Source: a virus
Lineage: Duplodnaviria; Heunggongvirae; Uroviricota; Caudoviricetes
Reading direction: 5' to 3' (one strand)
Virus record (IMG/VR): IMGVR_UViG_3300012352_000310
Span: 1-64,000 of that record
Length of the DNA stretch: 64,000 nt
The position numbers and the translations under genes were made by a program. Below are positions 4,938 to 60,883 of the stretch, in pieces. Position 1 is the stretch's first letter. The number at the start of each line of letters is the position of its first letter. Below the pieces are notes generated by a model. It had not been told where the DNA came from, ran no database searches, and was given only the letters and a program-made list of their open reading frames with translations.

Positions 4938-4947
4938 GTAAATTTGT

Positions 4948-39904: not shown

Positions 39905-41712
39905 CCTTCACAAGCTAGGCACGCGCCATCATCTGTAGTAAGTGCATTCAAATCGATTTCTTTAATAACTTCACGTTCGATACGCTTAGAAACTTTATCA
40001 GCTTTAGCGATCTTATCTGAACGGCAGTAATACATAGTCTTCAACTTTAACTTCCAAGCCATAAAGTGCACAGCATGGATATACTTAATGTGACTGTCTG
40101 GTCGGAAGAATACATTCAATGATTGAGCTTGATCGATGTACTCTTGACGATCAGCTGCATGTTGAACAACCCAGCGCTGATCAATTTCCATTGAAGTCTT
40201 GAACACATCACGTTGCCAATCATCAAGGAATTCCAAGTGTTGTGCCGAACCATCATTAGCGATAACTGAAGACCAAGTGTCTTCATACCAACCTTCTTTA
40301 TGATTAACAGCTTCAGCTCTGATCAGTGCATCAAGAAATTTATTCTTGTTTAAGTGAGAACCCGATAGAGTGTCTTGGCGATAAGCATTGGCGCGATAAG
40401 GTTCAATGCTAGGGCTAGTATTGCCCATGAGAATGGAAGAAGAAGCATTGGGAGCAATAGCCATGAGATGACTAAAGCGATTGCCAGTGCCTTTAGCATC
40501 TGGTGCTTCACCACGTTCATATCCCAATTCCTTATTAGCGACATCTAGTTTACCTCGAATGTTCTTGAAGATTGATTTATTAAGACCAACAGCCATTGAA
40601 GATTCCCAAGGGATGTTCTTCTTTTGTAGCAGAGCATGGAAGCCAAGGGCACCAATGCCAATTGATCGTTCACGTATTGCGCTGAACTTTGCGCGTTCAA
40701 TGCTGTCTGGGGCATTGTCAATAAAGTATTGAAGAACGTTATCCAACATTTCAGCTACGTCGCGTAAGAACTGTGGATGATCTTTCCATTCATCATAATA
40801 CTCTAGATTCAAAGAACTCAAGCAGCAGACAGCAGTGCGTTGTTCGTTAGTTGGTAGAATGATTTCAGAGCACAGATTAGATTGATGAACCTTCAATCCT
40901 TGGTCTTTTAACCACTGAGGAAGCTTACGATTGGATTCATCGATAAAGTGAATGTATGGCTCGCCTGTTTGCATACGCAGATCAAGAATCTTTTGCCATA
41001 GTTCACGAGCAGATACTACTTCACGAACTTCACCACTGTGCGGATCTTTTAGTTCCCAGCTGTCGTCAGCATGAGCATCGAGCATTGATCGCTCGATGAT
41101 TTCCATAAAGCTATCTGGAATATTGATACCATGATGCAGGTTGAGAGTACGCATATTTTGATCGCCTGTTGGCTTACGCATCTCAAGGAAAATTAGAATA
41201 TCAGGATGACTAATGTCAAGATAAGCAGCATAGCTACCGCGGCGAGTACGGCCTTGGCGGTAAGCAAGAGAAGATGCATCATACATCTTAAGATGTGGCA
41301 TAACGCCGGTAGACTTATCATCAGCAGCACGAATACCAAAACCAATTCCAACACCGCCTCCTAACATTGATAGCCAATTAGTCTCACTTAGGTTCTGCAC
41401 TAGACCTTCTGCAGTATCTTCAATGTAATTGAGGAAACATGAAATAGGCAGACCACGCTTACTGCGGCCAAAAGAAAGAATGGGAGTGCTATAAGAGAGC
41501 CAATGAGTTGAACTGTACTCATATAATCGTTGCGCATGTGCTGGGTTACTCCCGAATTTTGACGACACGAAAGCGAATCGCTCTTGAGGACTAACCTCGT
41601 CATCTTTCATGTAACTTTCTTTTAATCGAATCTTACCCAGTTCGTCGAACAACTCGTCTCTGGCAAGGTTCACTTGGATTCCGTGAACTACATCAGTCAT
41701 ATTATACTCCAT
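39901..41712 (-). CDS. nrdA: ribonucleotide reductase class I large subunit (short form, no ATP cone)
   Basis: 603 aa; active-site NLCSEI, C-terminal Cys pair CLACEG. Confidence 0.85.
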   Translation of the reverse strand: MEYNMTDVVHGIQVNLARDELFDELGKIRLKESYMKDDEVSPQERFAFVSSKFGSNPAHAQRLYEYSSTHWLSYSTPILSFGRSKRGLPISCFLNYIEDTAEGLVQNLSETNWLSMLGGGVGIGFGIRAADDKSTGVMPHLKMYDASSLAYRQGRTRRGSYAAYLDISHPDILIFLEMRKPTGDQNMRTLNLHHGINIPDSFMEIIERSMLDAHADDSWELKDPHSGEVREVVSARELWQKILDLRMQTGEPYIHFIDESNRKLPQWLKDQGLKVHQSNLCSEIILPTNEQRTAVCCLSSLNLEYYDEWKDHPQFLRDVAEMLDNVLQYFIDNAPDSIERAKFSAIRERSIGIGALGFHALLQKKNIPWESSMAVGLNKSIFKNIRGKLDVANKELGYERGEAPDAKGTGNRFSHLMAIAPNASSSILMGNTSPSIEPYRANAYRQDTLSGSHLNKNKFLDALIRAEAVNHKEGWYEDTWSSVIANDGSAQHLEFLDDWQRDVFKTSMEIDQRWVVQHAADRQEYIDQAQSLNVFFRPDSHIKYIHAVHFMAWKLKLKTMYYCRSDKIAKADKVSKRIEREVIKEIDLNALTTDDGACLACEG

Positions 41713-42589
41713 TTGTTTTGTAAATTTCTCGCTCCCACAATTTACGATACTGGATCCAACCTTTCAAGTTACCATGCAACGATTCATCTTGCCAGCTGGA
41801 CATCTGTCCCCTTGGAGCTGCGACAAGAATGTCTGGTGTTGCTTGGTGTTCAAGTGGACTCGCATGTAGTGGTACAGCGCCCGCTAGTCTCTGGAACAGG
41901 AACAAGTCTTCATCTTTGTTCGCTTTCGTTCCGTCGTGTTTTAAGTAACTTACACGACAGCATCGTGCAGCACTAATTTTTGCCAACATATTACTATTCG
42001 CGTTGGCTTCGATCTTGTAGAATGGATCTTCCAATTCCTCGTCTGTTATATATGGCAGATGCCATTGGCCCGGTTCGAGCAATCGAGGAGTAGAAGCATT
42101 TCTAGCTTCGATCATACGTAAAGCTAATTCATGTATTTCTGGTTGAGCGTCTTCATGTGCACGAAGCTCATCCCAGTTATCAAATTCAGTTGCCGTAACG
42201 ACACCATGAGCCCAAAGATACGGCTCAATAGTTCTGTTTACGATTTGTTTGTGTGTACCAAGCAGTGACATTGACTCAGCATAGAATGCAGCATGAATAG
42301 CTGCTTGACGCCATTGCTCTTTTACACCGCTTCGTGTCAGTGCATCAAGCTCTTCTTTGGCTTGCATACCTGCTTGATTCTTTCCCCAATGAACAGGCAA
42401 AGCAGGATCTGTGCGAACCTGCTCTAGTAATTTTGCTGTGGGGATTGCTCGACTTGAGCTGAAATTCCGAGAGAACACTCGGTGTGTATTGAATTCCGGT
42501 AGAATGAATCTATGGAACTTCACCTGCATCGTGGTGATGCGTTTGCCTGCCGCAGAAATGCTATCGGCAATAATTTTTGCTTCTATCAT
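41702..42589 (-). CDS. thyX: flavin-dependent thymidylate synthase
   Basis: 295 aa; THRVFSRNFSSSR matches ThyX RHRx7SxR motif; AHEDAQPEIHE resembles H-AQWE motif; occupies T4 td position next to nrdA. Confidence 0.7.
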   Translation of the reverse strand: MIEAKIIADSISAAGKRITTMQVKFHRFILPEFNTHRVFSRNFSSSRAIPTAKLLEQVRTDPALPVHWGKNQAGMQAKEELDALTRSGVKEQWRQAAIHAAFYAESMSLLGTHKQIVNRTIEPYLWAHGVVTATEFDNWDELRAHEDAQPEIHELALRMIEARNASTPRLLEPGQWHLPYITDEELEDPFYKIEANANSNMLAKISAARCCRVSYLKHDGTKANKDEDLFLFQRLAGAVPLHASPLEHQATPDILVAAPRGQMSSWQDESLHGNLKGWIQYRKLWEREIYKTNGV

Positions 42590-42652: not shown

Positions 42653-43090
42653 TTACTTTAGAAATTTAAGTAGGTCTGCATGTCCAGATAGATAACCGAC
42701 GGCCGCTGCTCCGCCCATCAGATACCAACGCCAACGCTCTAGAATACCAAGTCTGTCTTCTAATTTCGTGATATCTGTTTGAATTTCTTTTTGGATTTCT
42801 TGATGTTGTTCTTTGGCAGATTTTGCGCTTTCACGCATACGTTCTTCTATGTTCTTTTCAAGACCTGCAATCTTATCTACGATCTCGCGAGTCTGCGTAG
42901 TGATACGCGAATGTAGTTCTTTGATGTCGTCATCGCGAGCATCTGCAACCTTTTCTAGTTGCCCAATTCTTTCGTCGTGCACAGCTAAAAGTCTTCCAAT
43001 GCTATTACTTACCTCTGAGATTTTCTCGAGGGAGGAATCAAGCTTGTTAACGACGCTTTTCAGGACTTCTAATTCAGTTTCGAGTGCCAT
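42653..43090 (-). CDS. coiled-coil protein with C-terminal TM segment
   Basis: start at MALETELE; heptad-rich, WRWYLMGGAAAVGYL hydrophobic tail. Confidence 0.45.
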   Translation of the reverse strand: MALETELEVLKSVVNKLDSSLEKISEVSNSIGRLLAVHDERIGQLEKVADARDDDIKELHSRITTQTREIVDKIAGLEKNIEERMRESAKSAKEQHQEIQKEIQTDITKLEDRLGILERWRWYLMGGAAAVGYLSGHADLLKFLK

Positions 43091-43353
43091 TACTTCATTT
43101 CCTCGTATATTTTCCTTTGAATTTGATACCATTCGATGAAGGCATCGTGTTTTACTGCACACTCATAGTATGTAGAATAGTTTGAGTTAACAGTTTTGGC
43201 GACGTCACTTAGCTTTGCATCTTCTTGTAGCTTTTGTAATTGAGGGCAATTGCTCAATAATCTTTCTGGAACTTCTGGGAATTTTGCTACAACAGGTACA
43301 GTTGTAGAGCAGCCTGTCAATAGGAGAACTGCTAAGACTAGTGTGTATTTCAT
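43090..43353 (-). CDS. small lipoprotein (o-spanin candidate)
   Basis: 87 aa; lipobox LLTGC. Confidence 0.5.
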   Translation of the reverse strand: MKYTLVLAVLLLTGCSTTVPVVAKFPEVPERLLSNCPQLQKLQEDAKLSDVAKTVNSNYSTYYECAVKHDAFIEWYQIQRKIYEEMK

Positions 43354-43778
43354 TCTAGTTTCTCCGCTGCTTTATTATGAGCATCAATGAATTCCTTAGG
43401 AATCTTGCACTGATCATCATACTTTACAATCTCACGATCAATATATTTTACAATAGCGTCAGCACGCTCAGTAATAACTTTTTCTTTAGTTACAATCTTC
43501 TCTACGATCTTAACATTTTCTTTTGCAGACTTTACTTCTGCCTGAGCTACTTTGGCTTCCATCTCTTTTACACGAGCTTGCCATACAGCTTCATTAGACA
43601 TGGCACCCTCAAAGTATAAACCAAATACTAAAGCAGCGATAGCACCAAATTGAATTGGTAGCTTGTACTGACTTACGAATGGAATGAAGCCAAGTACAAA
43701 AGACGCTACTAAACCTAGAACACCAGCAATGGTGATCAGGTGAAATACAAAGTCTGGCAGAAAGTTAATGATCCACAT
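43350..43778 (-). CDS. N-terminal TM + coiled-coil protein (i-spanin candidate)
   Basis: 142 aa; hydrophobic N-terminus then charged coiled coil; immediately upstream of lipoprotein gene. Confidence 0.45.
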   Translation of the reverse strand: MWIINFLPDFVFHLITIAGVLGLVASFVLGFIPFVSQYKLPIQFGAIAALVFGLYFEGAMSNEAVWQARVKEMEAKVAQAEVKSAKENVKIVEKIVTKEKVITERADAIVKYIDREIVKYDDQCKIPKEFIDAHNKAAEKLE

Positions 43779-45526: not shown

Positions 45527-46954
45527 TTACTTAGATATTCTATTTAGTAGATCGTGGAAAGTGTACTTCTTAACGTTGCCGCTATTGTCACTACCCTTCT
45601 TAGGGCGACCACGTCCGCGCTTTTCAGCTGGCGCAGCTACCTTTTTCTTTTCGTTGCCTTCACGATCAGTTTCATATTCTGATCCATATGTACCTTTGTG
45701 ACGAACACCAGTTGCAGTCTTAATCACTTCGCCTTCGTCAAGTTCTTCTTCCTCTTTAAGCTTTGGTTTTTGCTTAGCTTTTTCAGCATCGCGTGCTTGT
45801 TTTTCTGCACGCTCTTTAGCAATCATCGCAGCCATAAGGCCAAGTTTATTCTTATCAGATGCTGTCAATTGACGGCCGTGATCATCTGGTACTCTGCCTT
45901 CATCTATTTCGATTACGTCTAGATCTTCATTAAAGCTCTTTTTGCCATCGTCTTCACCATTGTTGAAGTGAATGTCTTTAGAACGCTTGCGACCTAGTTT
46001 ATCTGCTTTCTTATCAGCAGTCTTTTCTAGTTTTTCTTCGCCTTGTTCTTCTTCGTCATCTTCAACTGTAGCTTCAGCAATGTAGCTCATGAAGTTTTTA
46101 TAAGATAACTTAGTATCTTGTGGTACAAAAGATTCTTTGATTGCATCAGGATGATTTTTAGCATGCGCATGGGCAGCACGAGAAGCAGCGTTATCGCCAA
46201 TCTTTTCGTAAGCATCTAGATATGCTTTAGCGCCTTCTGCAGCTGCCGACTTAGTCTTGTAACCATGCTGACCTAAGTACATTGTTGTGCCTTTTGTCTT
46301 ATGCACAACTTTAGGACGATGACCGCCGAATTGGCTTGGTTCAGAAGTAGCACGGTAGTGATCAGCGTTGATAGCTTCTTCTAGTTCAACTTCTTCTTTA
46401 GTAAGATCAGCCTTTACTTTATCGATTCCAGCTTGACGTTTTTCAGCTTTATTAGTCCAGTGATCTTTACGCTTAGTCCAAGCTGGATTGCTTGGATCTT
46501 CAGTTTCGCGCTTTGCATCAAGACTAGCTTGTTTCTTATAATCTTCTGGCTTACGCTTGCCAGTTGTAGCTTTTACAAAATAGCTAAGCTTAGTCTGCTT
46601 TGAGATTTCATCAATCTGTTCTTCGCACAGGTCTTCATATTCAAACTCCACACCTTCTTGATACACGCGATGAACTTCATGGTCACCAGCAGCGTCAGAA
46701 TCAGCCCACTTTTCATAGTGTTGTTGAGATTTGAACTTCTTAACGAAAGGCTTGGACTTCATACCTTTGACGCCTTGCGCAAACACTGGCTTCTTTTCAT
46801 CCATATCTTTTTGATACGCGCCAGCTTCGTCTAGTTCTTCTTCTTTACGAAGTTTCTTGAAGTCGTCAGCGTCTAGTTTACCATTCTTGTTTTTATCAAG
46901 CTTGTGCTGGTTGCCGACTAAGGCTTCGCTAAATTGTTTAAAGTTTATTGACAT
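45527..46954 (-). CDS. highly charged Lys/Glu/Asp-rich repeat protein (paralog of 46970-47896 product)
   Basis: 475 aa; recurring EEVELxE and HKxKGxxxY...AxAY units. Confidence 0.6.
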   Translation of the reverse strand: MSINFKQFSEALVGNQHKLDKNKNGKLDADDFKKLRKEEELDEAGAYQKDMDEKKPVFAQGVKGMKSKPFVKKFKSQQHYEKWADSDAAGDHEVHRVYQEGVEFEYEDLCEEQIDEISKQTKLSYFVKATTGKRKPEDYKKQASLDAKRETEDPSNPAWTKRKDHWTNKAEKRQAGIDKVKADLTKEEVELEEAINADHYRATSEPSQFGGHRPKVVHKTKGTTMYLGQHGYKTKSAAAEGAKAYLDAYEKIGDNAASRAAHAHAKNHPDAIKESFVPQDTKLSYKNFMSYIAEATVEDDEEEQGEEKLEKTADKKADKLGRKRSKDIHFNNGEDDGKKSFNEDLDVIEIDEGRVPDDHGRQLTASDKNKLGLMAAMIAKERAEKQARDAEKAKQKPKLKEEEELDEGEVIKTATGVRHKGTYGSEYETDREGNEKKKVAAPAEKRGRGRPKKGSDNSGNVKKYTFHDLLNRISK

Positions 46955-46969
46955 AGTGGTTTCCTTAGC

Positions 46970-47896
46970 TTAGTTATTTGGCTTATGCTTCATTGCAAGT
47001 TCGTGATGCTCTTCACCCTTTTCAGCATGTCTATCAGCTGTACTATGACGACCCTTTTCGCCGTGCCACTGAGCTAAATTATCGTGGTAGTCGGCCATGT
47101 GTAGGTGGTGAGCAAACATATCACCTTGTTTCTTAGCAGCATCTGCTGAACGCTTGTTCTCTTCAGACTTTGCATAAGCATCGCTTTCTTCAGCCATAAG
47201 TTCTTCAGTCTTCATAGAAGATGCTGGCTGTGGTGAGTGATACTCTGTCTCATGCACTTTGTAACCCTTCTTTTTATAGAAGGCTGATGCCTTGGCATGA
47301 GCTTCGTCTTTGTCTTTAGCCTTGACGATCACACGCTTCATGATCTTTTCTTTGCGTTGTGAAACTGCAGGATGATTAGGATCAGAAACTGTTACAATAA
47401 CTTTGTGTTGATCAGCGCCTTCATTCAGTTCAACTTCTTCACGCATTTGTGAATATTTGTCTAGAAGGTCTTTATGCTTAGCAATATCAGTCGATTTCAA
47501 TGTGTAGCGAGCAGTTTTAGCGTTATCAAGATGCATCTGCTTTTTCTTTTCGTCGCCACGATCATGAGCAGCAATTGCTTTATTCATATGATAGACGAAA
47601 GTACTTTCGTCTAGTTCAACTTCTTCTGAGACGTATGAACGATGCACAGATACTTGTTTGTCTGGATATTTCTTTGAGACTGCAGCATGAGCTTTTGATG
47701 CTTCGCCATGTGAACCAAAAGTCTTCCAAGGGCGTCCGTTAATATAGACTTTGTGAACTTCACGAGACTTAGACTTGCCATAACCTTCGTCATTAGCGCC
47801 ACCGTCTGCATGCCATGCTGCAGAACGATTCTTACCCATATAGAAAGCTTCTTTAACGCTTTCGTCCATTCCTTCGAATTCTAGAAAACTCTTCAT
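46970..47896 (-). CDS. highly charged repeat protein (paralog)
   Basis: 308 aa; shares EVHKVY, EEVELDE/EEVELNE, KKKGYKVHE units with neighbour. Confidence 0.6.
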   Translation of the reverse strand: MKSFLEFEGMDESVKEAFYMGKNRSAAWHADGGANDEGYGKSKSREVHKVYINGRPWKTFGSHGEASKAHAAVSKKYPDKQVSVHRSYVSEEVELDESTFVYHMNKAIAAHDRGDEKKKQMHLDNAKTARYTLKSTDIAKHKDLLDKYSQMREEVELNEGADQHKVIVTVSDPNHPAVSQRKEKIMKRVIVKAKDKDEAHAKASAFYKKKGYKVHETEYHSPQPASSMKTEELMAEESDAYAKSEENKRSADAAKKQGDMFAHHLHMADYHDNLAQWHGEKGRHSTADRHAEKGEEHHELAMKHKPNN

Positions 47897-47897
47897 A

Positions 47898-48344
47898 TCA
47901 TTCTCCAGATTTCAAGTGCGATCTTAGCATCCATGCTTGCTTAGCAAATTCATCTAGTAAGCCGGCAGCAAAATCTGCAAGACCTTGATTGTTTGCAGCG
48001 TCTGCATCTGCAAAGAGTTTATTTAGGTTGGCAGTGATCTGAGCATTGCAATCTAATAGATTCATAACCATTGCTTGGAAAGACTCTGGCTTGACAGTAT
48101 CTTCTTGAATAGTCTTGGATGGATATAGATCTTCTAGACTGATTGGAGCATAAGATCCAAGTGCACGCATTTGTTCTGCGATTGCGTCAATCTTTCCGTA
48201 GAATTGTTCGTATACGTCACCAAAGTACGCGTGGTCTTGAGCAAAGTTACGGCCTTCAATGTTCCAATGGTATGACTGCGCCTTAAAGTAAGACACAAAC
48301 ATATTAGCAAGAAGCTGCTTAAGTGTTGCTGATAGTGGGTTCAT
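47898..48344 (-). CDS. Dps-family ferritin-like protein
   Basis: 148 aa; SYHWNIEGRNFAQDHAYFGDVYEQFYGKIDAIAEQMRALG matches Dps ferroxidase-site pattern. Confidence 0.75.
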   Translation of the reverse strand: MNPLSATLKQLLANMFVSYFKAQSYHWNIEGRNFAQDHAYFGDVYEQFYGKIDAIAEQMRALGSYAPISLEDLYPSKTIQEDTVKPESFQAMVMNLLDCNAQITANLNKLFADADAANNQGLADFAAGLLDEFAKQAWMLRSHLKSGE

Positions 48345-48353
48345 GGGGTTTCC

Positions 48354-51077
48354 TTATTTTGTATAGCTCTTGTGTGCTAGACGATCGTTTTCAATCTTAC
48401 GCACTCTTGGAGCCATCTTCATAGCTAATCTATTTATGACAGCTTTACGACGCTGAATGATTCGTTCAATACGTTCTTTTTCTGCAACAGATAGTTTGTC
48501 TAATGGTTTCTTAGCTATGCGCTGCTTCATAGATTGAATAGCTAAGCGACGGGCGCGTTTATTTATGGTAGCTGTGCTGGAACGTGATTTCAATGCGATC
48601 TTAATCTTACGTTCACGCTTAGATTGAGTACGAGCAAATCTAACTTTAGCTCTCATACGTTCCATACGAGATAGAACTTCGTTCAATACTTCTTCAGCTA
48701 TATCTTCGATGTGTTCGCCTGTCTCGTCATCAACAAGAGCTAGTTCATCATCTTCATAAGCATCTAGAATATCGTCTTCATCTTCTAGATCACTAACGAT
48801 CTTATCCATCTCGTCGTCAGTTAGATCTAATTCGTCGCCAAGATCTTCTACTTCTTCTGAAGTCTTAGTTAATCCAAGTGTTAGATCGTCTTCGTCATCA
48901 GGAATATCTTCTTCAGTTCCTTCTTTTAGACGTTCTTTTTCTGACTGTTGCTTTGTTGCTAATGATGCTTTTTCTTGAGCATGCTTAACTTGAAGTTGAG
49001 CTGCTTCATGTTTTTTCTTAGCTGCTTCAACAGGATCGGCTTCTTCAGTTCTATATGCAACCTTCATTCTACGAAGGTGATGGTTATCTTCTGGAGATAC
49101 CATTGCATGACCAACTTGGTTTGGTTCTTGAACGATAGTGTCACTATCAGATTCATCGTCTTTTACGCTACGAACTTTAGACAACTGCTTCTGCAATACA
49201 GAAGTATCTTTACCAAGTGTTTTAGCTGTAGCGATTTCTTCTAGAATCTTAGAGATTTCTTCTTTAACATGCTTCTTAAGGTCGTTAGCAAACTGCTTAT
49301 TAGTTGCTTTCATAATACCAGAAAAACGCTTGTTGCCTTTCTTGAAGTCACCGGCTTTGTCTGCAGCAGATGCATCATCAGAAGCAGCTTTCTTGTAACG
49401 ACTTAACAGATCGGTAGAAAGTTCGTTAACAACTTCTTCATGAGCTAGTTTTCTCATTCCAGGATCAATGCTGCCATTATTATCGTAGCGATGCTGTACA
49501 CCTTTTTTACCAGATTTTTGTAAATCTTTCATAGCCTTGTCGGCGTCTGCATAGTTTTTGTGGGTGCTTGTCTTAATCCAATCGCCACGTGAATTACGAT
49601 AACCTACGTGAATGGTTTCTTCAGATACTTTCTGTGGTACTAACTTATCATCGTACTTAATTTCTGCTTCTTTAGCAGTCTGTAGCATCTTATGAAGCAC
49701 TTCAACATACTCAGGACGCATAGGTTTGCTGCGTACTTTACGTAGAGCATTGTTGATTAGTTGTTCTGGATTGGAAGACTTTTCTACGTCTTCAAGGCCT
49801 AGTGCCGAAGCAATGACACGCGCGACTTTGATCTTATCTGTAGCGTTGAATTTCATTTCTATTAGTTGTCCTTCTAGTTCTACTGAATCTGCAAATTCCG
49901 CGCCCTGAGTCTCAGGAGTGAAATTGTTCTCCATGTCTTGGATTTCGTGTTCATGAGTATGCCAATAGTCAAAGTGGTGCATGAACTCTCCAATACGATT
50001 TAGAGAATCTCTAGCCTTATCATGTGCGTCATGCCATGCCGCCAATTCGGCAGCTTCAGGTACCTTGTCCTGTTGCAAATGCGAATCGTTGATTTTCATG
50101 TAAGTGTCGGTCGACTTAAGTGCGTTTAGGATCGCGACAGCGTCCTTAATTTGTCCAGCGTTATAACGTTGGATTGTAGTTTGAAAGGCTTTAGTGGCAT
50201 CAGCTGAATGATGAAGATTCTTTGTCTTGTAACCCTTAAACGATATTTCTTCTGGCGCTTGACCAGTTGGGATGTCTTCCGCGATGAACGTCGGCTGAAC
50301 TGAATCTAACCACTTTTTACTGATGTCGCCAGATTCATTGACTACAGTTACGTAGTTAGCACCTCTATCGACAACCTCATACACTGACTCACCATCGGTG
50401 ACTTTGTCACCAACATTAAAAATCTCTCCTGCATGATACTTCTCACGAAGTTCGTTGCGCTCAAACTTAACTTGCTCTTTGATAACATCCATTCCCAAGC
50501 CTTGACGAATTTCATTCATCAAGCGCTTACCATCGATGTCTGTTAGGGTATGTGGAAGACCCTTCTTGAATAACTGATAGTCACCCTTCTTTGCGGCTTC
50601 ACGCATCTTAGTGCCAGACATACCGGCTGCGTTGTCAGCATCTGGATCGCGTTCACCAGCAGAAACAACTTCAATAGTTTCGAAGTTGAATGCATCAGTG
50701 CCGTTATACTTCTCTAAAATTCTCTTATACTCAGGAACACGATCGGAACCAGCGAGCATGACAAGATGCTTGTACTTCTTTGACAAAGCACCAGCAGCTT
50801 CAATGAATGTTCTGATTTGTTCGTTTGCCGCGACGAAGTTCGTCTTCGGAAACATTTTCTTAAGATAGTAGACTTTACGATCTACTTGGAGAGGATTAGA
50901 CTTTTTGTCTTGAGTGCGCGAAGCAAAGATGATATGGTCGGCTTTTTGTTTGCCGGCAATCTTTTTGACTGCGTTGACCAATAGCTCGTGACCATTTGTA
51001 GGCGGTTGGAATCTACCAAACGCCATGACGACCTTCTTAGAAGGCAGTTCTTGTACTAACTGTCTGTATGCTTTCAT
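48354..51077 (-). CDS. large late protein: N-terminal NMNAT/cytidylyltransferase-like domain fused to ~730-aa charged coiled-coil region
   Basis: 907 aa; MAFGRFQPPTNGH (HxGH-type) and MSGTKMREA (ISST-like) motifs in first 170 aa; late promoter 30 nt upstream. Confidence 0.7.
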   Translation of the reverse strand: MKAYRQLVQELPSKKVVMAFGRFQPPTNGHELLVNAVKKIAGKQKADHIIFASRTQDKKSNPLQVDRKVYYLKKMFPKTNFVAANEQIRTFIEAAGALSKKYKHLVMLAGSDRVPEYKRILEKYNGTDAFNFETIEVVSAGERDPDADNAAGMSGTKMREAAKKGDYQLFKKGLPHTLTDIDGKRLMNEIRQGLGMDVIKEQVKFERNELREKYHAGEIFNVGDKVTDGESVYEVVDRGANYVTVVNESGDISKKWLDSVQPTFIAEDIPTGQAPEEISFKGYKTKNLHHSADATKAFQTTIQRYNAGQIKDAVAILNALKSTDTYMKINDSHLQQDKVPEAAELAAWHDAHDKARDSLNRIGEFMHHFDYWHTHEHEIQDMENNFTPETQGAEFADSVELEGQLIEMKFNATDKIKVARVIASALGLEDVEKSSNPEQLINNALRKVRSKPMRPEYVEVLHKMLQTAKEAEIKYDDKLVPQKVSEETIHVGYRNSRGDWIKTSTHKNYADADKAMKDLQKSGKKGVQHRYDNNGSIDPGMRKLAHEEVVNELSTDLLSRYKKAASDDASAADKAGDFKKGNKRFSGIMKATNKQFANDLKKHVKEEISKILEEIATAKTLGKDTSVLQKQLSKVRSVKDDESDSDTIVQEPNQVGHAMVSPEDNHHLRRMKVAYRTEEADPVEAAKKKHEAAQLQVKHAQEKASLATKQQSEKERLKEGTEEDIPDDEDDLTLGLTKTSEEVEDLGDELDLTDDEMDKIVSDLEDEDDILDAYEDDELALVDDETGEHIEDIAEEVLNEVLSRMERMRAKVRFARTQSKRERKIKIALKSRSSTATINKRARRLAIQSMKQRIAKKPLDKLSVAEKERIERIIQRRKAVINRLAMKMAPRVRKIENDRLAHKSYTK

Positions 51078-51107
51078 TTAATCCATCTATGTTAAAGTAT
51101 ATCAATT

Positions 51108-51115
51108 ATTTATAT
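51108..51115 (-). promoter_or_regulatory. T4-type late promoter TATAAATA
   Basis: plus TATTTATA = minus TATAAATA, 30 nt upstream of 907-aa gene ATG. Confidence 0.6.
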
Positions 51116-52383
51116 CAGTATATTTCTCTCCACTGCATAGCAACGCCAACAGTGGTAGTTGATGCGCCTAAATTTGTGACTACAACAGCGAAAATCTCCG
51201 AGTCTGTGCAATCAAAGTTCTGTACAATATAGTTTTTCTTAGCCGAAGAAGGTTGCTGTCCTGCTGGAGCACCACCAGTTTTCTGGCTTCCCTGCGTTGC
51301 TGCAGTAGCCCAACCAGCATCAATCACATCACCACTTGTATACGCAGTGGCGTCGACATTATACTGAACGCCACTATCTGCGTGCACATCAGTCCAAGTT
51401 GTTTCTGTTAGCTGGGCTGATCCAGGCAACTTGACTAGCTGCCATCTTATATTTTCACCACTACTAAACATACTCAAATTACCCATACGAACAATAGATC
51501 TATTTGGGATACCTCTTAGCGTAGCCTTTAAACGAATAGCCATAACTGGCAGTGTCTGGCCCGCAGTGAGTGTTCTTGGTGTGTTTGCATGAGCCCAATC
51601 TTGACCAGCTTCAACATAACCACCCTCAGACATAACAGTAGAACAAATCTGATCCATATATGTAAGAGTTGATTGACTACTGCCAACAGAGACCGTGTTA
51701 ATCATCTCGCAACGAATCGGTAAGTTTGGAGTAGACATATAAACTCTATCCAACACATTGCTGTTATAAAACTCGTGCGCTATAACATACTTACCGTCAT
51801 GCACAAAACCACAACGAACTCTACCAACACCTAGCCACTGAAAGTCAAAGAACACAAGTTGTGTTTTATCGATATCAAAGTTGAAACCACTAGCGCCAGT
51901 TCCATCGCACTTGTCTTTGTTCCAATCTTCTTGACTAACAATGCGTTCAGCAACAACTCCTCCACTTGCCTTTGATCTTATCACAAACTGTAATACACCT
52001 GGTTGTACATCTACTGCGTTCGATTGAAAGTATATACCATTATCATCATCGTAGTAACCAGTGCGCTTATATACACCATCAACGTGTTCGTACATATTAA
52101 AACTAGAAAGAATCAGTTGACTCTTTCCTGGCATATAATGATGATAGAATTTTGATTGATGAACAATTCTACTATTTTCTGCCCGTGAAACAGACAACTG
52201 CGCACATGCTCTTGCGTTTTGGTAAATTATTCCCGCGCCATTTGTTGTCACTTCTAAAAAGTTTGGATCGATGCCGTAAATGTGTTTGTAATCGCCTAGT
52301 GTAAATGGTGTACTAGTACGATTGCGACCAAAAGCATCACCCAGATCTGGGTCTTGAAACAAAAACGTCATACTATTCTCCAA
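51115..52383 (-). CDS. hypothetical beta-rich protein (possible structural, jelly-roll-like)
   Basis: 422 aa; no recognisable T4 homolog; overlaps upstream gene by 16 nt. Confidence 0.55.
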   Translation of the reverse strand: MENSMTFLFQDPDLGDAFGRNRTSTPFTLGDYKHIYGIDPNFLEVTTNGAGIIYQNARACAQLSVSRAENSRIVHQSKFYHHYMPGKSQLILSSFNMYEHVDGVYKRTGYYDDDNGIYFQSNAVDVQPGVLQFVIRSKASGGVVAERIVSQEDWNKDKCDGTGASGFNFDIDKTQLVFFDFQWLGVGRVRCGFVHDGKYVIAHEFYNSNVLDRVYMSTPNLPIRCEMINTVSVGSSQSTLTYMDQICSTVMSEGGYVEAGQDWAHANTPRTLTAGQTLPVMAIRLKATLRGIPNRSIVRMGNLSMFSSGENIRWQLVKLPGSAQLTETTWTDVHADSGVQYNVDATAYTSGDVIDAGWATAATQGSQKTGGAPAGQQPSSAKKNYIVQNFDCTDSEIFAVVVTNLGASTTTVGVAMQWREIY

Positions 52384-53195
52384 CCATTTCTATAAATCAT
52401 TTGAATTGCTCCGTTATTCATCGCTAGAACAAATCCATTTGGATCGTTGTCTACGGTGCCTTGTACTGTTATCGGATAGACTGAAGCTCTTCCAGACTCG
52501 TCTTTGATAATTATGTATCTTCCGTCTTTAGCAAGTGATGGTAGTGTCAATGTTACTCTACCTTCATAATTAACACCAATATAGTAATCTTTTCTTCCTA
52601 TTGTATATGAAGCAGAGTTTACTAGTCTAGTCTGATGATCGAGACTTATTACATCGCCTGCGCCACCGCCTGGTCCAGCGGCAGATATTTTTCCAAGCCA
52701 CTGTTCCATAAACTTAAGTTTATCTAAGATTGCTTTCATCTCAGCATTTGTTTGCTGTTCAATTGGTTGTTGAAATGAGTGCGAATCTTTTGGAAGTGCA
52801 CGAAGATATTTTTCAACACCAATTGCAGCTTCAACTGGAGTCTTAGTCAGCTCTTCGACTTTAGCTTCTTCAATAGGCTCTACAGGAGCAACTTCATCTA
52901 AAAACTGAACTTCTTCCACTAAACTTTCTTCGACTACAAGATCTTCTTTTTTAGTAGCGCCTTCTAATTGAGTAAACAGAGCTCCTAAGTCTTCTTGTAT
53001 AGACTCGCGAACGTGTTTAACGAGTTGCTGTTTTGGATCTTTTGCAGCAACTTGGCTCAATTGCGAAAAAAGCGAAGAGAGGTCACCAGCGGCAGCCTCT
53101 TTTGCTTCTTTTACTATTTTATGTTTTGGATCTTCAACTTTGGCTTTTGCCATAGCTTTGAAGAAGTCGTTTAATTCACTCATTTTTCTGGCCAA
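52368..53195 (-). CDS. hypothetical protein, acidic coiled-coil N-term, beta-rich C-term
   Basis: 275-aa ORF. Confidence 0.55.
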   Translation of the reverse strand: MARKMSELNDFFKAMAKAKVEDPKHKIVKEAKEAAAGDLSSLFSQLSQVAAKDPKQQLVKHVRESIQEDLGALFTQLEGATKKEDLVVEESLVEEVQFLDEVAPVEPIEEAKVEELTKTPVEAAIGVEKYLRALPKDSHSFQQPIEQQTNAEMKAILDKLKFMEQWLGKISAAGPGGGAGDVISLDHQTRLVNSASYTIGRKDYYIGVNYEGRVTLTLPSLAKDGRYIIIKDESGRASVYPITVQGTVDNDPNGFVLAMNNGAIQMIYRNGWRIV

Positions 53196-56413: not shown

Positions 56414-56446
56414 TATTATACCATAAATTTGATTTTTTGTACACCG
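56414..56446 (-). promoter_or_regulatory. early promoter module
   Basis: TATTATACCATAAATTTGATTTTTTGTACA. Confidence 0.6.
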
Positions 56447-57349
56447 TTACTTATTCTTGACTTCTGTCTTGAAAGTTCGGCCACCCATTGGATATATTGA
56501 AGCACGAGCGCCTTTAAGGCCCAATTGTGTTCTATCGCCTTTGTAGATAACAGCCAACACTGGCTCAAATCCACCGATGATTTTATCTGGCAAATAGTGT
56601 ATGTGACCCGTTGCAGTTAACTGAAAATCGCCAGTCGACATCTGCTTAAGTCCTGGATCACCTTGAATGAGAACGTCAACACGGTTTACGTCTAAACTTG
56701 CTTTATCGAAATTCACGCCGTATACTGACATCATCTTAAGCTTGTTGTCTTTGATCTTCATGTAAGCAGATTGACTGCTTGGCATAACACCGCCAGGATA
56801 CAACAGATTGACTTGTTGTTCAAAGTACTTTACTTCTGGATGATTTGCAATCTCTTTTTCAGTGATACCACCCCACTGTTGAAAGTCTTTTGGTGTGGAT
56901 CCCTTCTTATGAGAGATATGACAAACAGCTTTTCCACTTTCATCTACTAGGTGAAAGTCAGATTTTGGAGTGCCAGCAGTCTTTTCAACACCAACTATAT
57001 TCTTAACAGTGCGGCTCTTAAGCTTAACATTTATTGGACCGCCGTTAAGAATAACTGCTTGAATAACAGCTTCTTCCAACATAGCAATAGCTGCTGATTC
57101 TACATCAAGACCACCAGTACGCCCTGATGCTTTGATAGTGATCTTAACATTGCCAACTACGATACCACCGATAGAAGAACCTTTTAGATTTCTGTCTACA
57201 ACAGCGCCAAGATTAGATAACATCTCTGCGAGCTCGAGCATCTTCTTTACTCGATCACCATCGACTAATACTACTATGCTTGTGCGGGTCTTACTCTTTA
57301 GAGTATAGCCTTTAGTGGCTAAGTAATCCGCTAATTGCATTCCATCCAT
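56447..57349 (-). CDS. hypothetical protein (late)
   Basis: 300 aa; ATGA overlap with upstream late gene. Confidence 0.55.
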   Translation of the reverse strand: MDGMQLADYLATKGYTLKSKTRTSIVVLVDGDRVKKMLELAEMLSNLGAVVDRNLKGSSIGGIVVGNVKITIKASGRTGGLDVESAAIAMLEEAVIQAVILNGGPINVKLKSRTVKNIVGVEKTAGTPKSDFHLVDESGKAVCHISHKKGSTPKDFQQWGGITEKEIANHPEVKYFEQQVNLLYPGGVMPSSQSAYMKIKDNKLKMMSVYGVNFDKASLDVNRVDVLIQGDPGLKQMSTGDFQLTATGHIHYLPDKIIGGFEPVLAVIYKGDRTQLGLKGARASIYPMGGRTFKTEVKNK

Positions 57350-58269
57350 TACTCAGCAGAGCCTTTTAGAGATGTTGCAATTGGAGTGCTTTCTGGCTTT
57401 AGACGGTGTCTTAAGAAAGTCTTGCCGTTATGCTTAAATTCAATTGAGTTGTTGCCAGACTTATGAACTGTGATATTCTTTGGATCATTTAAGATATGAT
57501 CGTGAGATGTTGCCGAATGTTCAGTGTCTACACTGTGGTCGTCTCCGCTTCCACCAGTTGTAGTCTTGTACAATGGAAGCTTAGTTTCATGAGCATGCAA
57601 TAGATTGTTTCTGATATGATCGCTTAATGCTTTTGGATGCATTTGAGAAAGTGAGTGGTGCCACTCATCGCGAATCTTACCTATAGCAGCATTGGATAGT
57701 TTTTCAGCAGTTTCACGGAACTTAGGATTGTCTTTAATGGCTTGCTTCATTTCAACCTTAGACATTCCTTGAAGCTCTTTATGCTTCTTGATCATCTCTT
57801 CGCGTGCATCATCATAGTGCTTAACTGCATTAGTTCCAAGTTGTTGGTCTGTTTGCTTTGCACCAGGATTTCCGACAGGAACTTTACCATTCTTTTTCTT
57901 GGTGACTTTTAAAGAGATACCAACGTGAGCTCCATTCTTGTGTCGCAAGATAATGTCAGCAGAGTTCTGTTGCTGTGTCTCTTCTACACCAGTAATTCTA
58001 CCTATGTCTCCTGGCTTAGAAGACCAGTGAGCAGAAGCAATACCGTCACCAAACTTTTGGCGTAGATGGTCTGCTGTGCCTTTTGCCATTTTAACGTGGT
58101 CTTTGTACTCTTCTGGAGTCATGCGCTTTTTTATCTCATCGTGAGTGCGCTCTGCCTCTGGAGACATATGCTTACCGTGGTTTAGTTCTTTACCGGTAAG
58201 AATTTCGTGGATAACACCTTTATCGTTAGACGATACGGCTTCCGTTAAAAATGAGATAAAAGTTTTCAT
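57349..58269 (-). CDS. hypothetical His-rich protein (late)
   Basis: 306 aa; late promoter 30 nt upstream. Confidence 0.55.
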   Translation of the reverse strand: MKTFISFLTEAVSSNDKGVIHEILTGKELNHGKHMSPEAERTHDEIKKRMTPEEYKDHVKMAKGTADHLRQKFGDGIASAHWSSKPGDIGRITGVEETQQQNSADIILRHKNGAHVGISLKVTKKKNGKVPVGNPGAKQTDQQLGTNAVKHYDDAREEMIKKHKELQGMSKVEMKQAIKDNPKFRETAEKLSNAAIGKIRDEWHHSLSQMHPKALSDHIRNNLLHAHETKLPLYKTTTGGSGDDHSVDTEHSATSHDHILNDPKNITVHKSGNNSIEFKHNGKTFLRHRLKPESTPIATSLKGSAE

Positions 58270-58298: not shown

Positions 58299-58306
58299 TA
58301 TTTATA
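58299..58306 (-). promoter_or_regulatory. T4-type late promoter TATAAATA
   Basis: plus TATTTATA; sits between terminator hairpin and gene start. Confidence 0.6.
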
Positions 58307-58332
58307 AAAAGAAAAGCCCCTTGCGGGGCTTT
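58304..58332 (-). terminator. rho-independent terminator ending the upstream early operon
   Basis: hairpin AAGCCCC-TTGC-GGGGCTT followed by U-rich run on minus strand. Confidence 0.7.
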
Positions 58333-58334: not shown

Positions 58335-59561
58335 TTAGATGAACTCTTCTAGTGAAGTTCTGGGAGCTGTATCCCTTATTTCGTAAGTCTTGTTTCCATT
58401 ATATTGGTAGATAAGATCTCCATTTAGCCAATCTCTCTTACCATCCAAGGCGTCTTTGATCTCGTTTGCCATATCGCTAGCAGTGGTAACTGGAACGTTT
58501 TGACACACATGATTCAAGTTACGGCTAGGATTGAGCAACTCGAAGTCATATGGAAGTCCCATTAAACTCATTGCTTCTCGATACGTTATATAACGATCTT
58601 CATCGGGGTGCGTGAGGTTGGTTGGTAAGTGTCCGACGAAGGCTCCAATGTAATTAGCTGGAATAACAGAAGACCTACGCATAATATTACCACCAGCAGC
58701 CAACTTTGTAGCAATAGCTTCACACTTTGTAGCAACTTTTGGATAATCATTCGCTTCCATCCACTTCTTTACTTGCCAGTAATCAGTTTTAGATTCAATC
58801 CAGTCCATAGCGTCTACGGACTTGGTCAATTTTTTCACAAACTCTTGATGAGTGATTCCACCTTCTAATTCTTCTAGAACATATCGATAGTAAGGATCAT
58901 CTTTAGACGGGATCTTCTTATTCGTGACTTCATGCTGTGTTAGATCTTTTGGTATCTCACGGATAGCATCTTCGATTCGTTTGTTCGCACGATCAAAGTA
59001 GTTGAACAAAGGCACTTGGTTGCCTTTCCAAAAGAAGTAGAATGAACGTTCACGAACTTGGCTCAATCCATGCAGAAGAGACTTTGTACGATAGATCGAC
59101 ATAGTGTAACCCTGTGCTGAAGCAATTACACGAAGTTTATCTACAATAGGCTTACCCATTTCGCCTGCGAATCGAGGAGCATTCTCTCCCCAAAAGACTT
59201 TCGGTTTCATCTCTTCTAAAACATACTTCGCCGTAGTTGTCATCCAATCGTTCACAGCTGCTTCAGAATTTGCAGAAGTAGAAAGAGAAGAAAGACCAGC
59301 ACATGGGCAAGTTGCACCAACAACATCGACATAATGAGGATGGCGTCCACCTTGGTCTAGAAGAATGTATGGAACGTCTTTATAGTAGTTGACTAAGTGT
59401 GAGTCGTTACTAGAGAATGGCGAATACGACAAAAGGTAGTCTGGACGACTACCAAATGCTTTTTCTTGACCGAGTGGAAGTCCCCCAATTAGAGGGACAA
59501 TTGCTGCATGTTTAAACAAAGAAAGACTCCAAAGTATCAGTTGGCTTTTGAGATGATTCAT
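58335..59561 (-). CDS. DNA C5-cytosine methyltransferase-family protein (divergent)
   Basis: 408 aa; GATCPCAGLS (motif IV PC), GENAPRF (motif VI ENV-like), QVRER (VIII), REAMSLMGLPYDF (motif X). Confidence 0.6.
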   Translation of the reverse strand: MNHLKSQLILWSLSLFKHAAIVPLIGGLPLGQEKAFGSRPDYLLSYSPFSSNDSHLVNYYKDVPYILLDQGGRHPHYVDVVGATCPCAGLSSLSTSANSEAAVNDWMTTTAKYVLEEMKPKVFWGENAPRFAGEMGKPIVDKLRVIASAQGYTMSIYRTKSLLHGLSQVRERSFYFFWKGNQVPLFNYFDRANKRIEDAIREIPKDLTQHEVTNKKIPSKDDPYYRYVLEELEGGITHQEFVKKLTKSVDAMDWIESKTDYWQVKKWMEANDYPKVATKCEAIATKLAAGGNIMRRSSVIPANYIGAFVGHLPTNLTHPDEDRYITYREAMSLMGLPYDFELLNPSRNLNHVCQNVPVTTASDMANEIKDALDGKRDWLNGDLIYQYNGNKTYEIRDTAPRTSLEEFI

Positions 59562-60333
59562 ATGCTTTCTTATGCTGAATCACCGTTCCATATTTAGTCA
59601 ACCCTTTCCAAGGGCCGCTTGGTACTTTCTTCTCAGTTAGCTTGATAAAGTTAGGCCACAGATCAGCCAACTTCTTTTGAGCTTCGTTATGCACTTCAAT
59701 AGTGCGCCAAGTAGAACATCCACCAGCAGCGTTAGTCTCAGAACAGGTTACCATGTATTTAGCGCTGATACGATTCTTAAATCCACGAGTCAGCAATTGT
59801 AGATTCACATCAAAGTCTTCTGCTGCAGCAACACGATTCCATTCGATGTCCGTTGGAATACGAGGGCCATCATAGAAAACGTTTGTCATGATACGTTGGC
59901 ATTCACGTACTGGCCATTGCTTAACATCTGGAATAACCCAAGCAGGCAGCAATCCACCGTAAGCAATACCTTCGTCCATCCAAGTATCGCACAGACCAAA
60001 TGCATCGTCAAAGTCTTGATCACTGAACTTTCGGCTCAACCACTTAGTGCCTTCACCGGGATTCGGTTCTTTTACTACGAAGTCAAGATCATCGTCAAAC
60101 ACAAAATGCCTAGAATCGCGAAACCGATTGAAGATCCATTCTCGAGTAGGCGCAATGCGATTGATTTCTGCAGGAAGTCGTAGTACTTTTCCTGGATAGC
60201 GTTTTTCCATTTCGTCATATTCATGCTCCTGTACGACAAAGGTTGTAATATTCTTGTACTTTTCTGGCAAGTTACCATACGTGACTTGTTTGTCCATACG
60301 TCCAAGAGTCGGGATTACGATGTGTTGAATCAT
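59512..60333 (-). CDS. GT-A-like glycosyltransferase candidate
   Basis: 273 aa; N-terminal VIPTLGR (GT2-like) and FDDDLDF DxD motif. Confidence 0.45.
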   Translation of the reverse strand: MIQHIVIPTLGRMDKQVTYGNLPEKYKNITTFVVQEHEYDEMEKRYPGKVLRLPAEINRIAPTREWIFNRFRDSRHFVFDDDLDFVVKEPNPGEGTKWLSRKFSDQDFDDAFGLCDTWMDEGIAYGGLLPAWVIPDVKQWPVRECQRIMTNVFYDGPRIPTDIEWNRVAAAEDFDVNLQLLTRGFKNRISAKYMVTCSETNAAGGCSTWRTIEVHNEAQKKLADLWPNFIKLTEKKVPSGPWKGLTKYGTVIQHKKAYESSQKPTDTLESFFV

Positions 60334-60710: not shown

Positions 60711-60883
60711 TGTGATGTGCCTTTAATTCCGTCGTCGTACTGCAACTCTAAATTTCCCCAGAATGATTCTGGGTAATCCCAATGTAGTGTCTGTTTAATA
60801 ACTGTAGCTTCTTGTCGCATTGGGTGAACATACACTCTATCGCCTGGAAGAAACTTTGGAGGATTTCCGTTTGAGTCTTTCAT
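60686..60883 (-). CDS. hypothetical protein
   Basis: 65-aa ORF. Confidence 0.4.
   Translation of the reverse strand: MKDSNGNPPKFLPGDRVYVHPMRQEATVIKQTLHWDYPESFWGNLELQYDDGIKGTSHCWQVEKV

Follow-up and report, generated by a model that had tools for sequence, protein, structure and literature searches.

How should the highly charged, repeat-bearing proteins encoded next to a Dps-family protein in an uncultured T4-like virus be understood, and do they belong to the virion? The stretch of 64,000 nucleotides (nt) analysed here and referred to as the window (positions 1 to 64,000 of IMG/VR virus record IMGVR_UViG_3300012352_000310) carries six co-oriented open reading frames (ORFs), for proteins of 475, 308, 148, 907, 422 and 275 amino acids (aa), between 45,527 and 53,195. 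Proteins are named by their lengths, coordinates are those of the window, and all ORFs of the block are on the minus strand (Table 1). A first-pass annotation, made from the sequence without database searches, had described these ORFs as tightly coupled, and this was confirmed: the gaps within the 907-Dps-308-475 run are 9, 1 and 15 nt, and the 275-aa and 422-aa genes have an ATGA stop/start overlap if the latter begins at Met5. It had further proposed a late module of accessory virion or ejected proteins. This proposal is supported by leaders and linkers at the protein level, by the detection of a homologue (T4-GC190) in cyanophage virions, by a late-promoter motif at a 30-nt spacing and by the virion family of the 422-aa protein. 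With moderate confidence, we read the region as the core of a conserved late module of capsid-internal (ejection) proteins with a polyprotein-style organisation, in an uncultured marine-type T4-like myovirus.

The 475-aa and 308-aa proteins contain 40% and 34% of K/R/D/E residues, with net charges of -1 and +1, and the repeated EEVELxE-terminated units for which they had been singled out are present in five copies. They had also been called paralogous, which could not be upheld: BLASTP between them gave E=0.017 with 23% identity, and simple paralogy was rejected for a common module pool and linker grammar without collinear homology. When 1.84 billion cluster representatives were searched exhaustively by HMMER for matches to the 475-aa protein, 692 relatives were retrieved, and its segments (about 1-45, 45-105, 186-277 and 400-475) each match different proteins of 77-1437 aa at differing positions. 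Matches to the 308-aa protein span just 20-50% of its length at 60-88% identity; some of the matching proteins also carry DUF6321 or DUF5824, and four also match the 475-aa protein. The mosaic proteins consist of modules of 55-150 aa from a common pool, and the module boundaries coincide with an acidic linker motif. Long relatives have up to eight linker copies spaced by 54-90 aa, with the same modules reordered. The shuffled orders are explicit in the relatives P0129, P0131, P0133 and P0149, where the 'SWMSQRS' module occupies the second position in P0149 and the fourth in P0133, and the 'AFKPGDKV' module the fourth in P0129 and the ninth in P0149. Stand-alone small ORFs with the same modules, such as P0192 and P0266, begin at the predicted cut positions. 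Single-linkage clustering of linker-delimited fragments by BLAST over-merged them (one family of 86) and was discarded as uninformative.

The AlphaFold (AF2) model of the 308-aa protein had a mean predicted local distance difference test score of 78.7, with 137 residues at 90 or above, and a predicted template-modelling (TM) score of 0.33. Compact modules were seen at residues 45-89, 97-158, 162-223 and 239-303, and the confidence dipped at both linkers, so that the modelled protein is a beads-on-a-string architecture. Foldseek with the 308-aa model against PDB gave no match at E <=0.001. The top non-significant match, of a module within 47420-47896, was to T7 Gp2, which inhibits the RNA polymerase of the host (E=0.28, probability 0.95, target TM 0.61), and is noted as a weak lead. 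An EF-hand-like calcium-binding loop, DKNKNGKLDADD, lies at residues 20-31 of the 475-aa protein (46862-46897), with a sub-threshold match to Pfam EF-hand_1 (E=0.0073); the EF-hand-like string DKNKNG recurs in 31 relatives, mostly in the first module.

The linker itself has the consensus K-E-E-V-E-L-D-E followed by A, G or S, in order of decreasing frequency. When all six frames of the window were searched for EE(V/E)EL(D/E/N)E followed by A/G/S, the five copies occurred solely in the 475-aa and 308-aa proteins, while shuffling predicts about 1e-4 copies per protein (P<5e-5). The strict linker was found 93 times in 150 relatives against 0.14 expected, and an unbiased count of 6-mers placed EEVELD, KEEVEL and VELDEA among the most recurrent. 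With EE.E as the sole anchor, A/G/S occupied P1', the position after the predicted cut, in 128 of the 168 sites that have L/I at P3 and E at P1, against a background of 22.7%. The same anchored analysis revealed a second linker class, KEE(V/A)EQIDE↓LSK (arrows mark predicted cuts), of which the 475-aa protein has one, EEQIDE↓IS. A relative of the nucleotidyltransferase fusion in contig L016 also has linkers, GEEVELEE↓S and KEDVELEE↓S. Because the Leu codons vary among the copies (CTT, CTA and CTG), selection acts on the linker peptide and not on the DNA, and a DNA-level recombination site was ruled out. In cultured phages, the strict linker was found in one protein, of 251 aa, from Methylophilales phage Melnitz (L004 11240-11995, residue 139); judged by these searches, the linker exists in isolates at low frequency and the modules of the window do not.

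The prohead protease gp21 cuts after Glu in the sequence (L/I)-x-E. This rule agrees with the capsid-targeting sequence (CTS) of T4 and with the 'LIE-9' site described in PMC9026906. The linker fits it as well, with L/I at P3, E at P1 and a small residue at P1', and thus looks like a cutting site of a maturation protease. In the Kyanoviridae relative S-RIM32, which encodes a late sigma factor and homologues of gp21, gp22 and gp23, L-x-E sites are at the expected places: ...GMLNE↓VAV near residue 53 of gp23, MKLITE↓N in gp21, and 18 sites in gp22. The fragments predicted from cutting at the linkers are 6-18 kDa with isoelectric points (pI) of 5.7-10, and those of the 308-aa protein all have pI >=8. 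The C-terminal module of the 475-aa protein has a pI of about 10 and a net charge of +8, and contains the AT-hook KRGRGRPKKG (residues 445-454; 45593-45622), an R-G-R-P core with basic flanks. RGRGRP is the commonest 6-mer in the mosaic family (48 of 149 relatives), and the AT-hook module was always C-terminal in the four multi-module relatives that were examined in detail. The AT-hook supports putative DNA binding by this C-terminal module alone.

Internal proteins of the T4 type are targeted to the capsid by an N-terminal peptide of ~10-19 aa. The CTS of T4 is MKTYQEFIAE (PMC8442874), in which residues 4 and 7 serve targeting, and residues 8 and 10 serve removal by gp21, which cuts after Glu (PMC8442874, PMC9026906, PMC5694885, PMC7411985). 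Six genes at 45.5-58.3 kb begin with the leader pattern M-x-x-[FYL]-x-x-[FYL]-[ILV]-x-E or a variant of it. The 306-aa, 907-aa and DUF6267 proteins match strictly, and the 308-aa, 457-aa and 475-aa proteins have variants (Table 1); the three strict leaders in the window compare with about 0.05 expected by a rough estimate from residue frequencies. In the 306-aa leader, each of the functional positions of the T4 CTS (4, 7, 8 and 10) is matched. The leaders end at residues 8-10 in the motifs F-L-T-E↓A, L-V-Q-E↓L, F-I-T-E↓D and F-S-E↓A, at which cleavage is predicted, and in the DUF6267 and 907-aa proteins the leader precedes the conserved domain. No leader is found on Dps, the 422-aa protein, the staphylococcal-nuclease-fold protein, a 300-aa protein, the Ig-like protein, the spanins or the metabolic proteins. 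Outside the block, a 145-aa protein (33182-33619, minus strand) begins with MITFKEYVDH, which is almost the leader of the 457-aa protein but has no Glu at residue 9 or 10.

The nearest relatives of the window are Kyanoviridae-type marine T4-like phages (C48C1, Melnitz, HTVC008M and cyanophages) together with Stenotrophomonas phage DLP_6, in which the DUF6267 protein and the 907-aa N-domain find their best matches; the schizo-T4 (KVP40-type) affiliation implied in the first-pass annotation was not borne out. The DUF6267 leader is kept in DLP_6, Melnitz, C48C1 and five metagenomic contigs (L007, L009, L011, L015 and L016). Orthologous genes begin with MMKFTQFLAE↓S in DLP_6, and with MQGFKTFLSE↓A, xINFSKYITE↓D and MKKFSEIIE↓A in Melnitz; four genes of C48C1 and genes of five metagenomic contigs have leaders as well. 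The cytidylyltransferase of S-CAM7 begins with MKSFLNFLFE↓A, stand-alone DUF6321 proteins of relatives begin with MINFKEYLDE or MITFKEFLEE, and single-module genes in L011 and L016 (48, 88 and 150 aa) have their own leader. The true N-termini of the mosaic family include 20 strict leaders, where shuffling predicts 0.085, and in a control family 0 of 120 had one. The strict rate was 7.6% of N-termini as compared with 0.3% of internal Met positions, and many other members have looser variants.

Behind its leader, the 907-aa protein consists of a (H/T)xGH nucleotidyltransferase domain at residues ~11-268 (GRFQPPTNGH) and a charged tail of ~640 aa, which is built from modules common to the mosaic family; the module at residues 549-607 recurs at the N-terminus of P0131. 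Purified S-SM1 virions were found to contain a homologue of the N-domain, the 'citidylyltransferase' T4-GC190 of the cyanophage core (Sullivan et al. 2010, PMC3037559), which the supplementary table of the same paper flags as structural and gives for all 16 cyanophage genomes. The domain had been labelled NMNAT in the first-pass annotation; this label is over-specific, as the match is below threshold for every curated family (TIGR00125, 17.7 bits with a cut-off of 27.7; PF01467, 18.5 bits with a cut-off of 21). The window has a true bifunctional NMNAT-Nudix gene elsewhere (16840-17814, minus strand; NF003786, 4e-69), and BLASTP between its product and the 907-aa protein gave E=0.011, with the GRFQPxxxGH motif alone in common. 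That gene adjoins one for a NadV-type nicotinamide phosphoribosyltransferase (15382-16779, minus strand), and by sequence the two are a complete NAD+ salvage pair, separate from the 907-aa protein. Sequence searches of PDB with the 907-aa N-domain and the DUF6267 protein gave nothing useful. In the DUF6267 protein, a conserved K-W-D-G at residues 58-61 (TKWDGAPA in S-PRM1) is reminiscent, by motif alone, of motif I of ligase/capping nucleotidyltransferases.

A late promoter had been placed at 51108, and the T4-type late-promoter motif TATAAATA is indeed found there, ending 30 nt upstream of the 907-aa gene; it stands at the same distance from the 306-aa gene, and both genes bear leaders. The raw count of the motif in the window is not enriched (3 copies against 2.35 expected), and the case for it rests on position and comparative conservation. 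All three copies are intergenic and on the coding strand, where non-coding sequence makes up 15.6% of the window. In front of the orthologues of the 907-aa gene in the five related contigs, TATAAATA, AATAAATA or ACTAAATA ends exactly 30 nt before the ATG (for L016, with the internal Met that corresponds to the start of the other orthologues), so that the TAAATA core is at exactly 30 nt in six of the six contigs including the window; a conserved 'tatagatgga' element follows the motif in the five. At the other end of the block, the strongest terminator hairpin of the region is followed directly by TATAAATA, and a terminator hairpin with (T)ATAAATA also precedes the first block gene in L007, L009 and L011. 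Late transcription of the block is thus supported at the level of motifs: the segment 58299-58332 is the probable start of a late transcription unit, and the copy at 51107-51114 is the probable promoter of a 907-Dps-308-475 operon. An extended -10-like element before the DUF6267 gene, which has a similar counterpart (GGTATAAT-AG) directly before leader-bearing genes in L015 and L016, may act in early transcription or in the initiation of translation. The third copy of TATAAATA is intergenic at 5683-5690, on the strand of a 30-tRNA array (57-5025, minus strand; most amino acids covered), which it precedes.

From these observations, the following mechanism can be proposed. The leader would tether each protein to a gp22-type scaffolding core during prohead assembly, and a gp21-type prohead protease would then cut off the leader and cleave every linker. 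Because both would be cut, one leader could import a set of small cargo proteins (6-18 kDa) that are neutral to basic, one of them with an AT-hook. Like IPI-III and Alt of T4, the cargo would accompany the packaged DNA and be injected along with it; larger cargo with enzymatic functions would comprise the 907-aa fusion, the DUF6267 protein and the DUF5824/DUF6321 protein. Single-module genes with their own leader, and the linkers in relatives of the nucleotidyltransferase fusion, are consistent with this mechanism. Somewhat more tentatively, we suggest that 'one leader, many cargos' is a possible strategy of a widespread clade of uncultured marine T4-like phages, in which shuffled effector modules would be brought into the prohead by a single targeting peptide and cut at KEEVELDE↓A to yield a diverse, fast-evolving injected cocktail.

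Several observations weigh against capsid-internal processing. Genes of the gp21/gp22/gp23 type are not within the window, and their presence is deduced from the T4-like identity of the phage. The (L/I)-x-E motif is short and common in E/K-rich proteins. The leader is found on just ~8% (strict) to 19% (loose) of mosaic-family members, some syntenic mosaic genes of relatives start without it (e.g., MAEKEEEVLD...), and the DUF6267 protein of S-PRM1 lacks it. The mosaic modules have no significant fold or sequence match to proteins of known function, and tblastn with the 475-aa protein and the 1251-aa relative P0149 found none in 50,697 deposited phage genomes. Finally, the best sigma70-like promoter of the region (10/12, with the extended -10 TGGTATAAT) lies directly before the DUF6267 gene at 56415-56443 (minus strand), and part of the block may also be expressed early. 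This promoter, the incomplete distribution of the leader, the metabolic appearance of Dps and the nucleotidyltransferase, and the position of the block among replication and nucleotide-metabolism genes (UvsX, gp41, NrdAB and ThyX) instead of a head or tail cluster would all suit cytoplasmic, non-virion proteins of late or middle infection, for example DNA-associated or anti-defence factors, whose shared N-terminus would serve another purpose such as translation initiation, degradation or localisation. In T4, however, the ip genes are likewise situated away from the head cluster. Virions do physically contain the cyanophage homologue of the nucleotidyltransferase, the leader agrees with the T4 CTS at exactly its functional positions, the late-promoter motif is kept at a fixed spacing, and the 422-aa virion structural protein and the Ig-like head protein are embedded in the block. 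We consider a purely cytoplasmic role improbable.

If the proteins are packaged, they might still act intact, and indeed whether packaged or not, as multidomain 'polyvalent' proteins in which the linker is an uncleaved spacer or docking motif. Packaging and injection of intact mosaic multidomain proteins is documented for polyvalent proteins and for the N4 virion RNA polymerase (PMC5512222), and in the AF2 model one linker ends a long helix with no obvious loop. However, a passive spacer needs no near-invariant KEEVELDE with a small P1' across unrelated modules and many lineages. The conserved positions (L/I at P3, E at P1, A/G/S at P1') are those expected of a T4-type prohead protease, the stand-alone module ORFs P0192 and P0266 begin where cutting is predicted, and no conserved linkers are reported in the polyvalent-protein paper (PMC5512222). 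Because a spacer leaves the positional conservation unexplained, we give this explanation some weight but regard it as unlikely. The first-pass annotation had suggested DNA mimicry or nucleoid binding, for which the high charge density speaks, and the AT-hook supports DNA binding by the single module that has it. DNA mimics of the Ocr/ArdA type have a strong net negative charge. On the other hand, the mosaic proteins have net charges close to zero and fragments that are neutral to basic (pI 5.7-10; all modules of the 308-aa protein >=8), and their acidic residues concentrate in the short linkers and not across surfaces. Mimicry is thus disfavoured while one module may bind DNA, and as an explanation of the charged proteins as a group this idea is very improbable. 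Packaging in the capsid followed by cutting at the linkers remains the reading that we favour, and the features on which it is based are collected in Table 1.

Table 1. Genes and sequence features of the block, in order along the minus strand. Arrows mark predicted cuts.
Feature	Position in window	Strand	Remarks
Terminator hairpin (58313-58332) and TATAAATA (58299-58306)	58299..58332	-	30 nt upstream of 306-aa gene
306-aa protein	57349..58269	-	Leader MKTFISFLTE↓A
DUF6267 protein, 409 aa	55177..56406	-	Leader MLRLKDFITE↓D; Pfam domain from residue 13; KWDG motif
DUF5824 + DUF6321 protein, 457 aa	53777..55150	-	Leader-like N-terminus MITFKNYVE
Staphylococcal-nuclease-fold protein, 148 aa	53329..53775	-	N-terminal signal peptide MIKKLLTAFIAGALLAAPAFA↓Q; no CTS-like leader
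275-aa protein (probably 271 aa)	52368..53195	-	ATG at 53183; charged repetitive N-half, beta-rich C-terminal ~100 aa
422-aa protein (probably 418 aa)	51115..52383	-	ATG at 52371; phrog_1645
TATAAATA, T4-type late-promoter motif	51107..51114	-	30 nt upstream of 907-aa ATG
907-aa nucleotidyltransferase fusion	48354..51077	-	Leader MKAYRQLVQE↓L
Dps-family mini-ferritin, 148 aa	47898..48344	-	Same position in all related contigs
308-aa mosaic protein	46970..47896	-	Leader MKSFLEFEGMDE↓S; two linkers between four compact modules
Linker SEEVELDE↓S, 308-aa protein	47606..47629	-	Motif
Linker REEVELNE↓G, 308-aa protein	47420..47443	-	Motif
475-aa mosaic protein	45527..46954	-	Leader MSINFKQFSE↓A; five linkers; C-terminal AT-hook
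Linker KEEELDE↓A, 475-aa protein	46826..46846	-	Motif
Linker EEQIDE↓I, 475-aa protein	46607..46624	-	Motif
Linker KEEVELEE↓A, 475-aa protein	46376..46399	-	Motif
Linker VIEIDE↓G, 475-aa protein	45899..45916	-	Motif
Linker KEEEELDE↓G, 475-aa protein	45734..45757	-	Motif
Ig-like 'head protein'/Hoc-like (MALWG... family), 185 aa	44918..45475	-	phrog_613, 6.1e-33

The Dps assignment of the first-pass annotation proved sound. The protein matches Pfam Ferritin (PF00210) at 1.9e-21 and solved Dps dodecamers over its full length at ~1e-15 (43 chains at E <1e-5, aligned residues 6-145), and its matches to NCBIfam Dps models are below the equivalog cut-offs. The His/His/Asp/Glu residues of the ferroxidase centre are kept (HWNIEG, DHAYF and DAIAEQ, as compared with HWNVKG, H and D..AER of 5lbh and 8ff9), and from its sequence we take the protein to be a genuine Dps. 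It is without a Lys-rich N-terminal tail, its N-terminus MNPLSATLKQLL having one Lys, so that DNA binding is not implied. It is probably a co-transcribed mini-ferritin that protects phage DNA or handles iron late in infection. The cellular role of the Dps family would point to control of iron and peroxide in the cell, near the replicating and packaging DNA, which does not imply encapsidation.

The 422-aa protein, described at first as unplaced, belongs to phrog_1645, 'virion structural protein' (8.6e-104 over residues 16-422), a family abundant in marine phages. It is 50% identical to the S-RIM32 protein and 33-37% identical to those of many cyanophages and HMO-2011. Its fold is a beta-sandwich of the concanavalin-A-like lectin / GH16-like type, in which the catalytic E-x-D-x(x)-E motif of GH16 was not seen. 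Its gene likely starts at Met5, as in the identical metagenomic protein P0001 of 418 aa, and comparison with relatives of 271-273 aa makes Met5 the likely start of the 275-aa gene as well. The 275-aa protein gave a weak match to a tail-fibre PHROG and no phage match by tblastn. This partner is conserved upstream of the 408-aa homologue in L015 and L016, and an insertion specific to the window was ruled out by the conservation of the pair in this sub-lineage. The pair is best taken as a virion-associated, probably glycan-binding protein and its coupled partner. For the 306-aa protein, no PHROG or NCBIfam match was found. The staphylococcal-nuclease-fold protein has a clear signal peptide, implying export, and its place in the functional module is uncertain; in the related Logan contig, an ORF of 49 aa is called within the 133 nt between this gene and the next.

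The block is conserved as a unit. At the nucleotide level, the region has no relative among 50,697 phage genomes by Megablast. In related metagenomic contigs (124-327 kb), the order is UvsX, gp41 helicase, a protein of ~270-350 aa, DUF6267, in some cases the ~272-aa and 408-aa proteins, the nucleotidyltransferase fusion (680-1077 aa), DUF6321/DUF5824, ferritin/Dps, one or two mosaic proteins, the MALWG Ig-like head protein, DUF7207, spanins, ThyX, NrdAB and SegE. The block genes are syntenic in at least six long related contigs. The Ig-like gene lies directly downstream of the mosaic genes in all relatives. The i-spanin/o-spanin pair (43090-43778, minus strand; o-spanin lipobox LLLTGC) is just downstream of the block and syntenic in all related contigs. 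The T4-like identity is supported by the synteny of UvsX, gp41 and SegE and by best matches in Kyanoviridae.

Elsewhere, the window encodes a T4-type DNA ligase and an exonuclease, as well as ThyX, NrdAB, dCMP deaminase, a ThyA-family enzyme, a glucosyltransferase and methyltransferases. A likely DNA-modification cluster at 59512-62367 (minus strand) comprises a TAGT-type glucosyltransferase (phrog_842, PF20691), the dCMP deaminase and the ThyA-family enzyme (61645-62367), and the C5 DNA methyltransferase at 58335-59561 is counted with it. Because a ThyX-type enzyme is already present at 41702-42589, the ThyA-family enzyme may not be a second thymidylate synthase but a dCMP/dUMP hydroxymethylase. 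Two adjacent 65-aa ORFs (27117-27314 and 27375-27572, minus strand) are identical in their first 32 residues (MTKIEAIKEHIALREQFWKPYSKLGYAYGFFR) and suggest that a tandem duplication took place recently.

Proteins that enter the host together with phage DNA are active ahead of any phage gene expression and are prime candidates for countering host defences, and they are almost unknown outside T4, P1, P22/T7 and the giant phages. That cyanophage virions contain the cytidylyltransferase was established in 2010, with its route into them left unexplained; the leader, if real, would account for it. If leader and linker are real, they would be a portable tag from which the injected proteins of the abundant marine T4-like phages could be predicted from genome sequence alone. 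The module pool would then be a library of small, modular and recombining domains, hundreds in number and without known function, that are likely early-acting effectors, and an uncharacterised reservoir of first-strike anti-host or anti-defence factors. In addition, the octapeptide would define the extended specificity of the Kyanoviridae-type prohead protease, and could be used to load foreign proteins into capsids.

Among known systems, the T4-GC190/DUF6267 pair of cyanophages has homologues in the block. The 907-aa N-domain and the 409-aa protein are 38-57% identical to the pair in Kyanoviridae, HTVC008M, Melnitz and DLP_6, whereas the nucleotidyltransferase of the window bears the mosaic tail of ~640 aa and its pair is split by the 457-aa, staphylococcal-nuclease-fold, 275-aa and 422-aa genes. 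In its proposed way of working, the block is closest to IPI, IPII, IPIII and Alt of T4. These share a leader of ~10 residues with aromatic or hydrophobic residues at 4 and 7 and [ILV]-x-E at 8-10, mature products that are small and mostly neutral to basic, genes off the main head cluster and behind late promoters, and highly polymorphic cargo with a conserved targeting signal. The first-pass annotation had seen no resemblance to T4 internal proteins, and this has to be revised for the targeting and processing signals. The mature parts, on the other hand, have no similarity (no Pfam, PHROG or NCBIfam match to internal proteins or Alt); the T4 internal proteins are single modules that are cut once, whereas the block concatenates several modules behind one leader with an extended linker, and Alt carries an ADP-ribosyltransferase where the block has the nucleotidyltransferase and DUF6267. 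From these signals, the block would work like the internal-protein system without being a member of the IPI-III/Alt families.

Multiple (L/I)-x-E sites in one polypeptide, processed in the prohead by gp21, are also found in gp22, gp67 and gp68 of T4. Their fragments are scaffold debris that mostly leaves the head, whereas the segments of the block are folded, conserved and mobile domains, which suggests that those between the sites are functional products. The polyvalent proteins (Iyer et al. 2017, PMC5512222) are similar in extreme mosaicism (2-15 domains per polypeptide) and in predicted packaging and co-injection for conflict with the host. They are defined, however, by effector domains (MPTase, ART, methylases, ParB and others), none of which was detected in the block, and that paper describes no conserved inter-domain linker and does not cover marine T4-like phages. 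In phiKZ and SPN3US, many internal head proteins are cut after Glu by a gp21-related protease, some at several sites per propeptide; the P3 preference differs (S/A/G-x-E or A-x-E), and no modular polyprotein with a repeated extended linker is reported. Literature searches for 'EEVELDE' in phages and for 'DUF6267' returned no prior description, and 'capsid targeting sequence' with 'cyanophage' returned a T4 review only. Relative to the literature searched, the concatenated, linker-delimited and shuffling polyprotein would be a new form of the internal-protein system known from T4.

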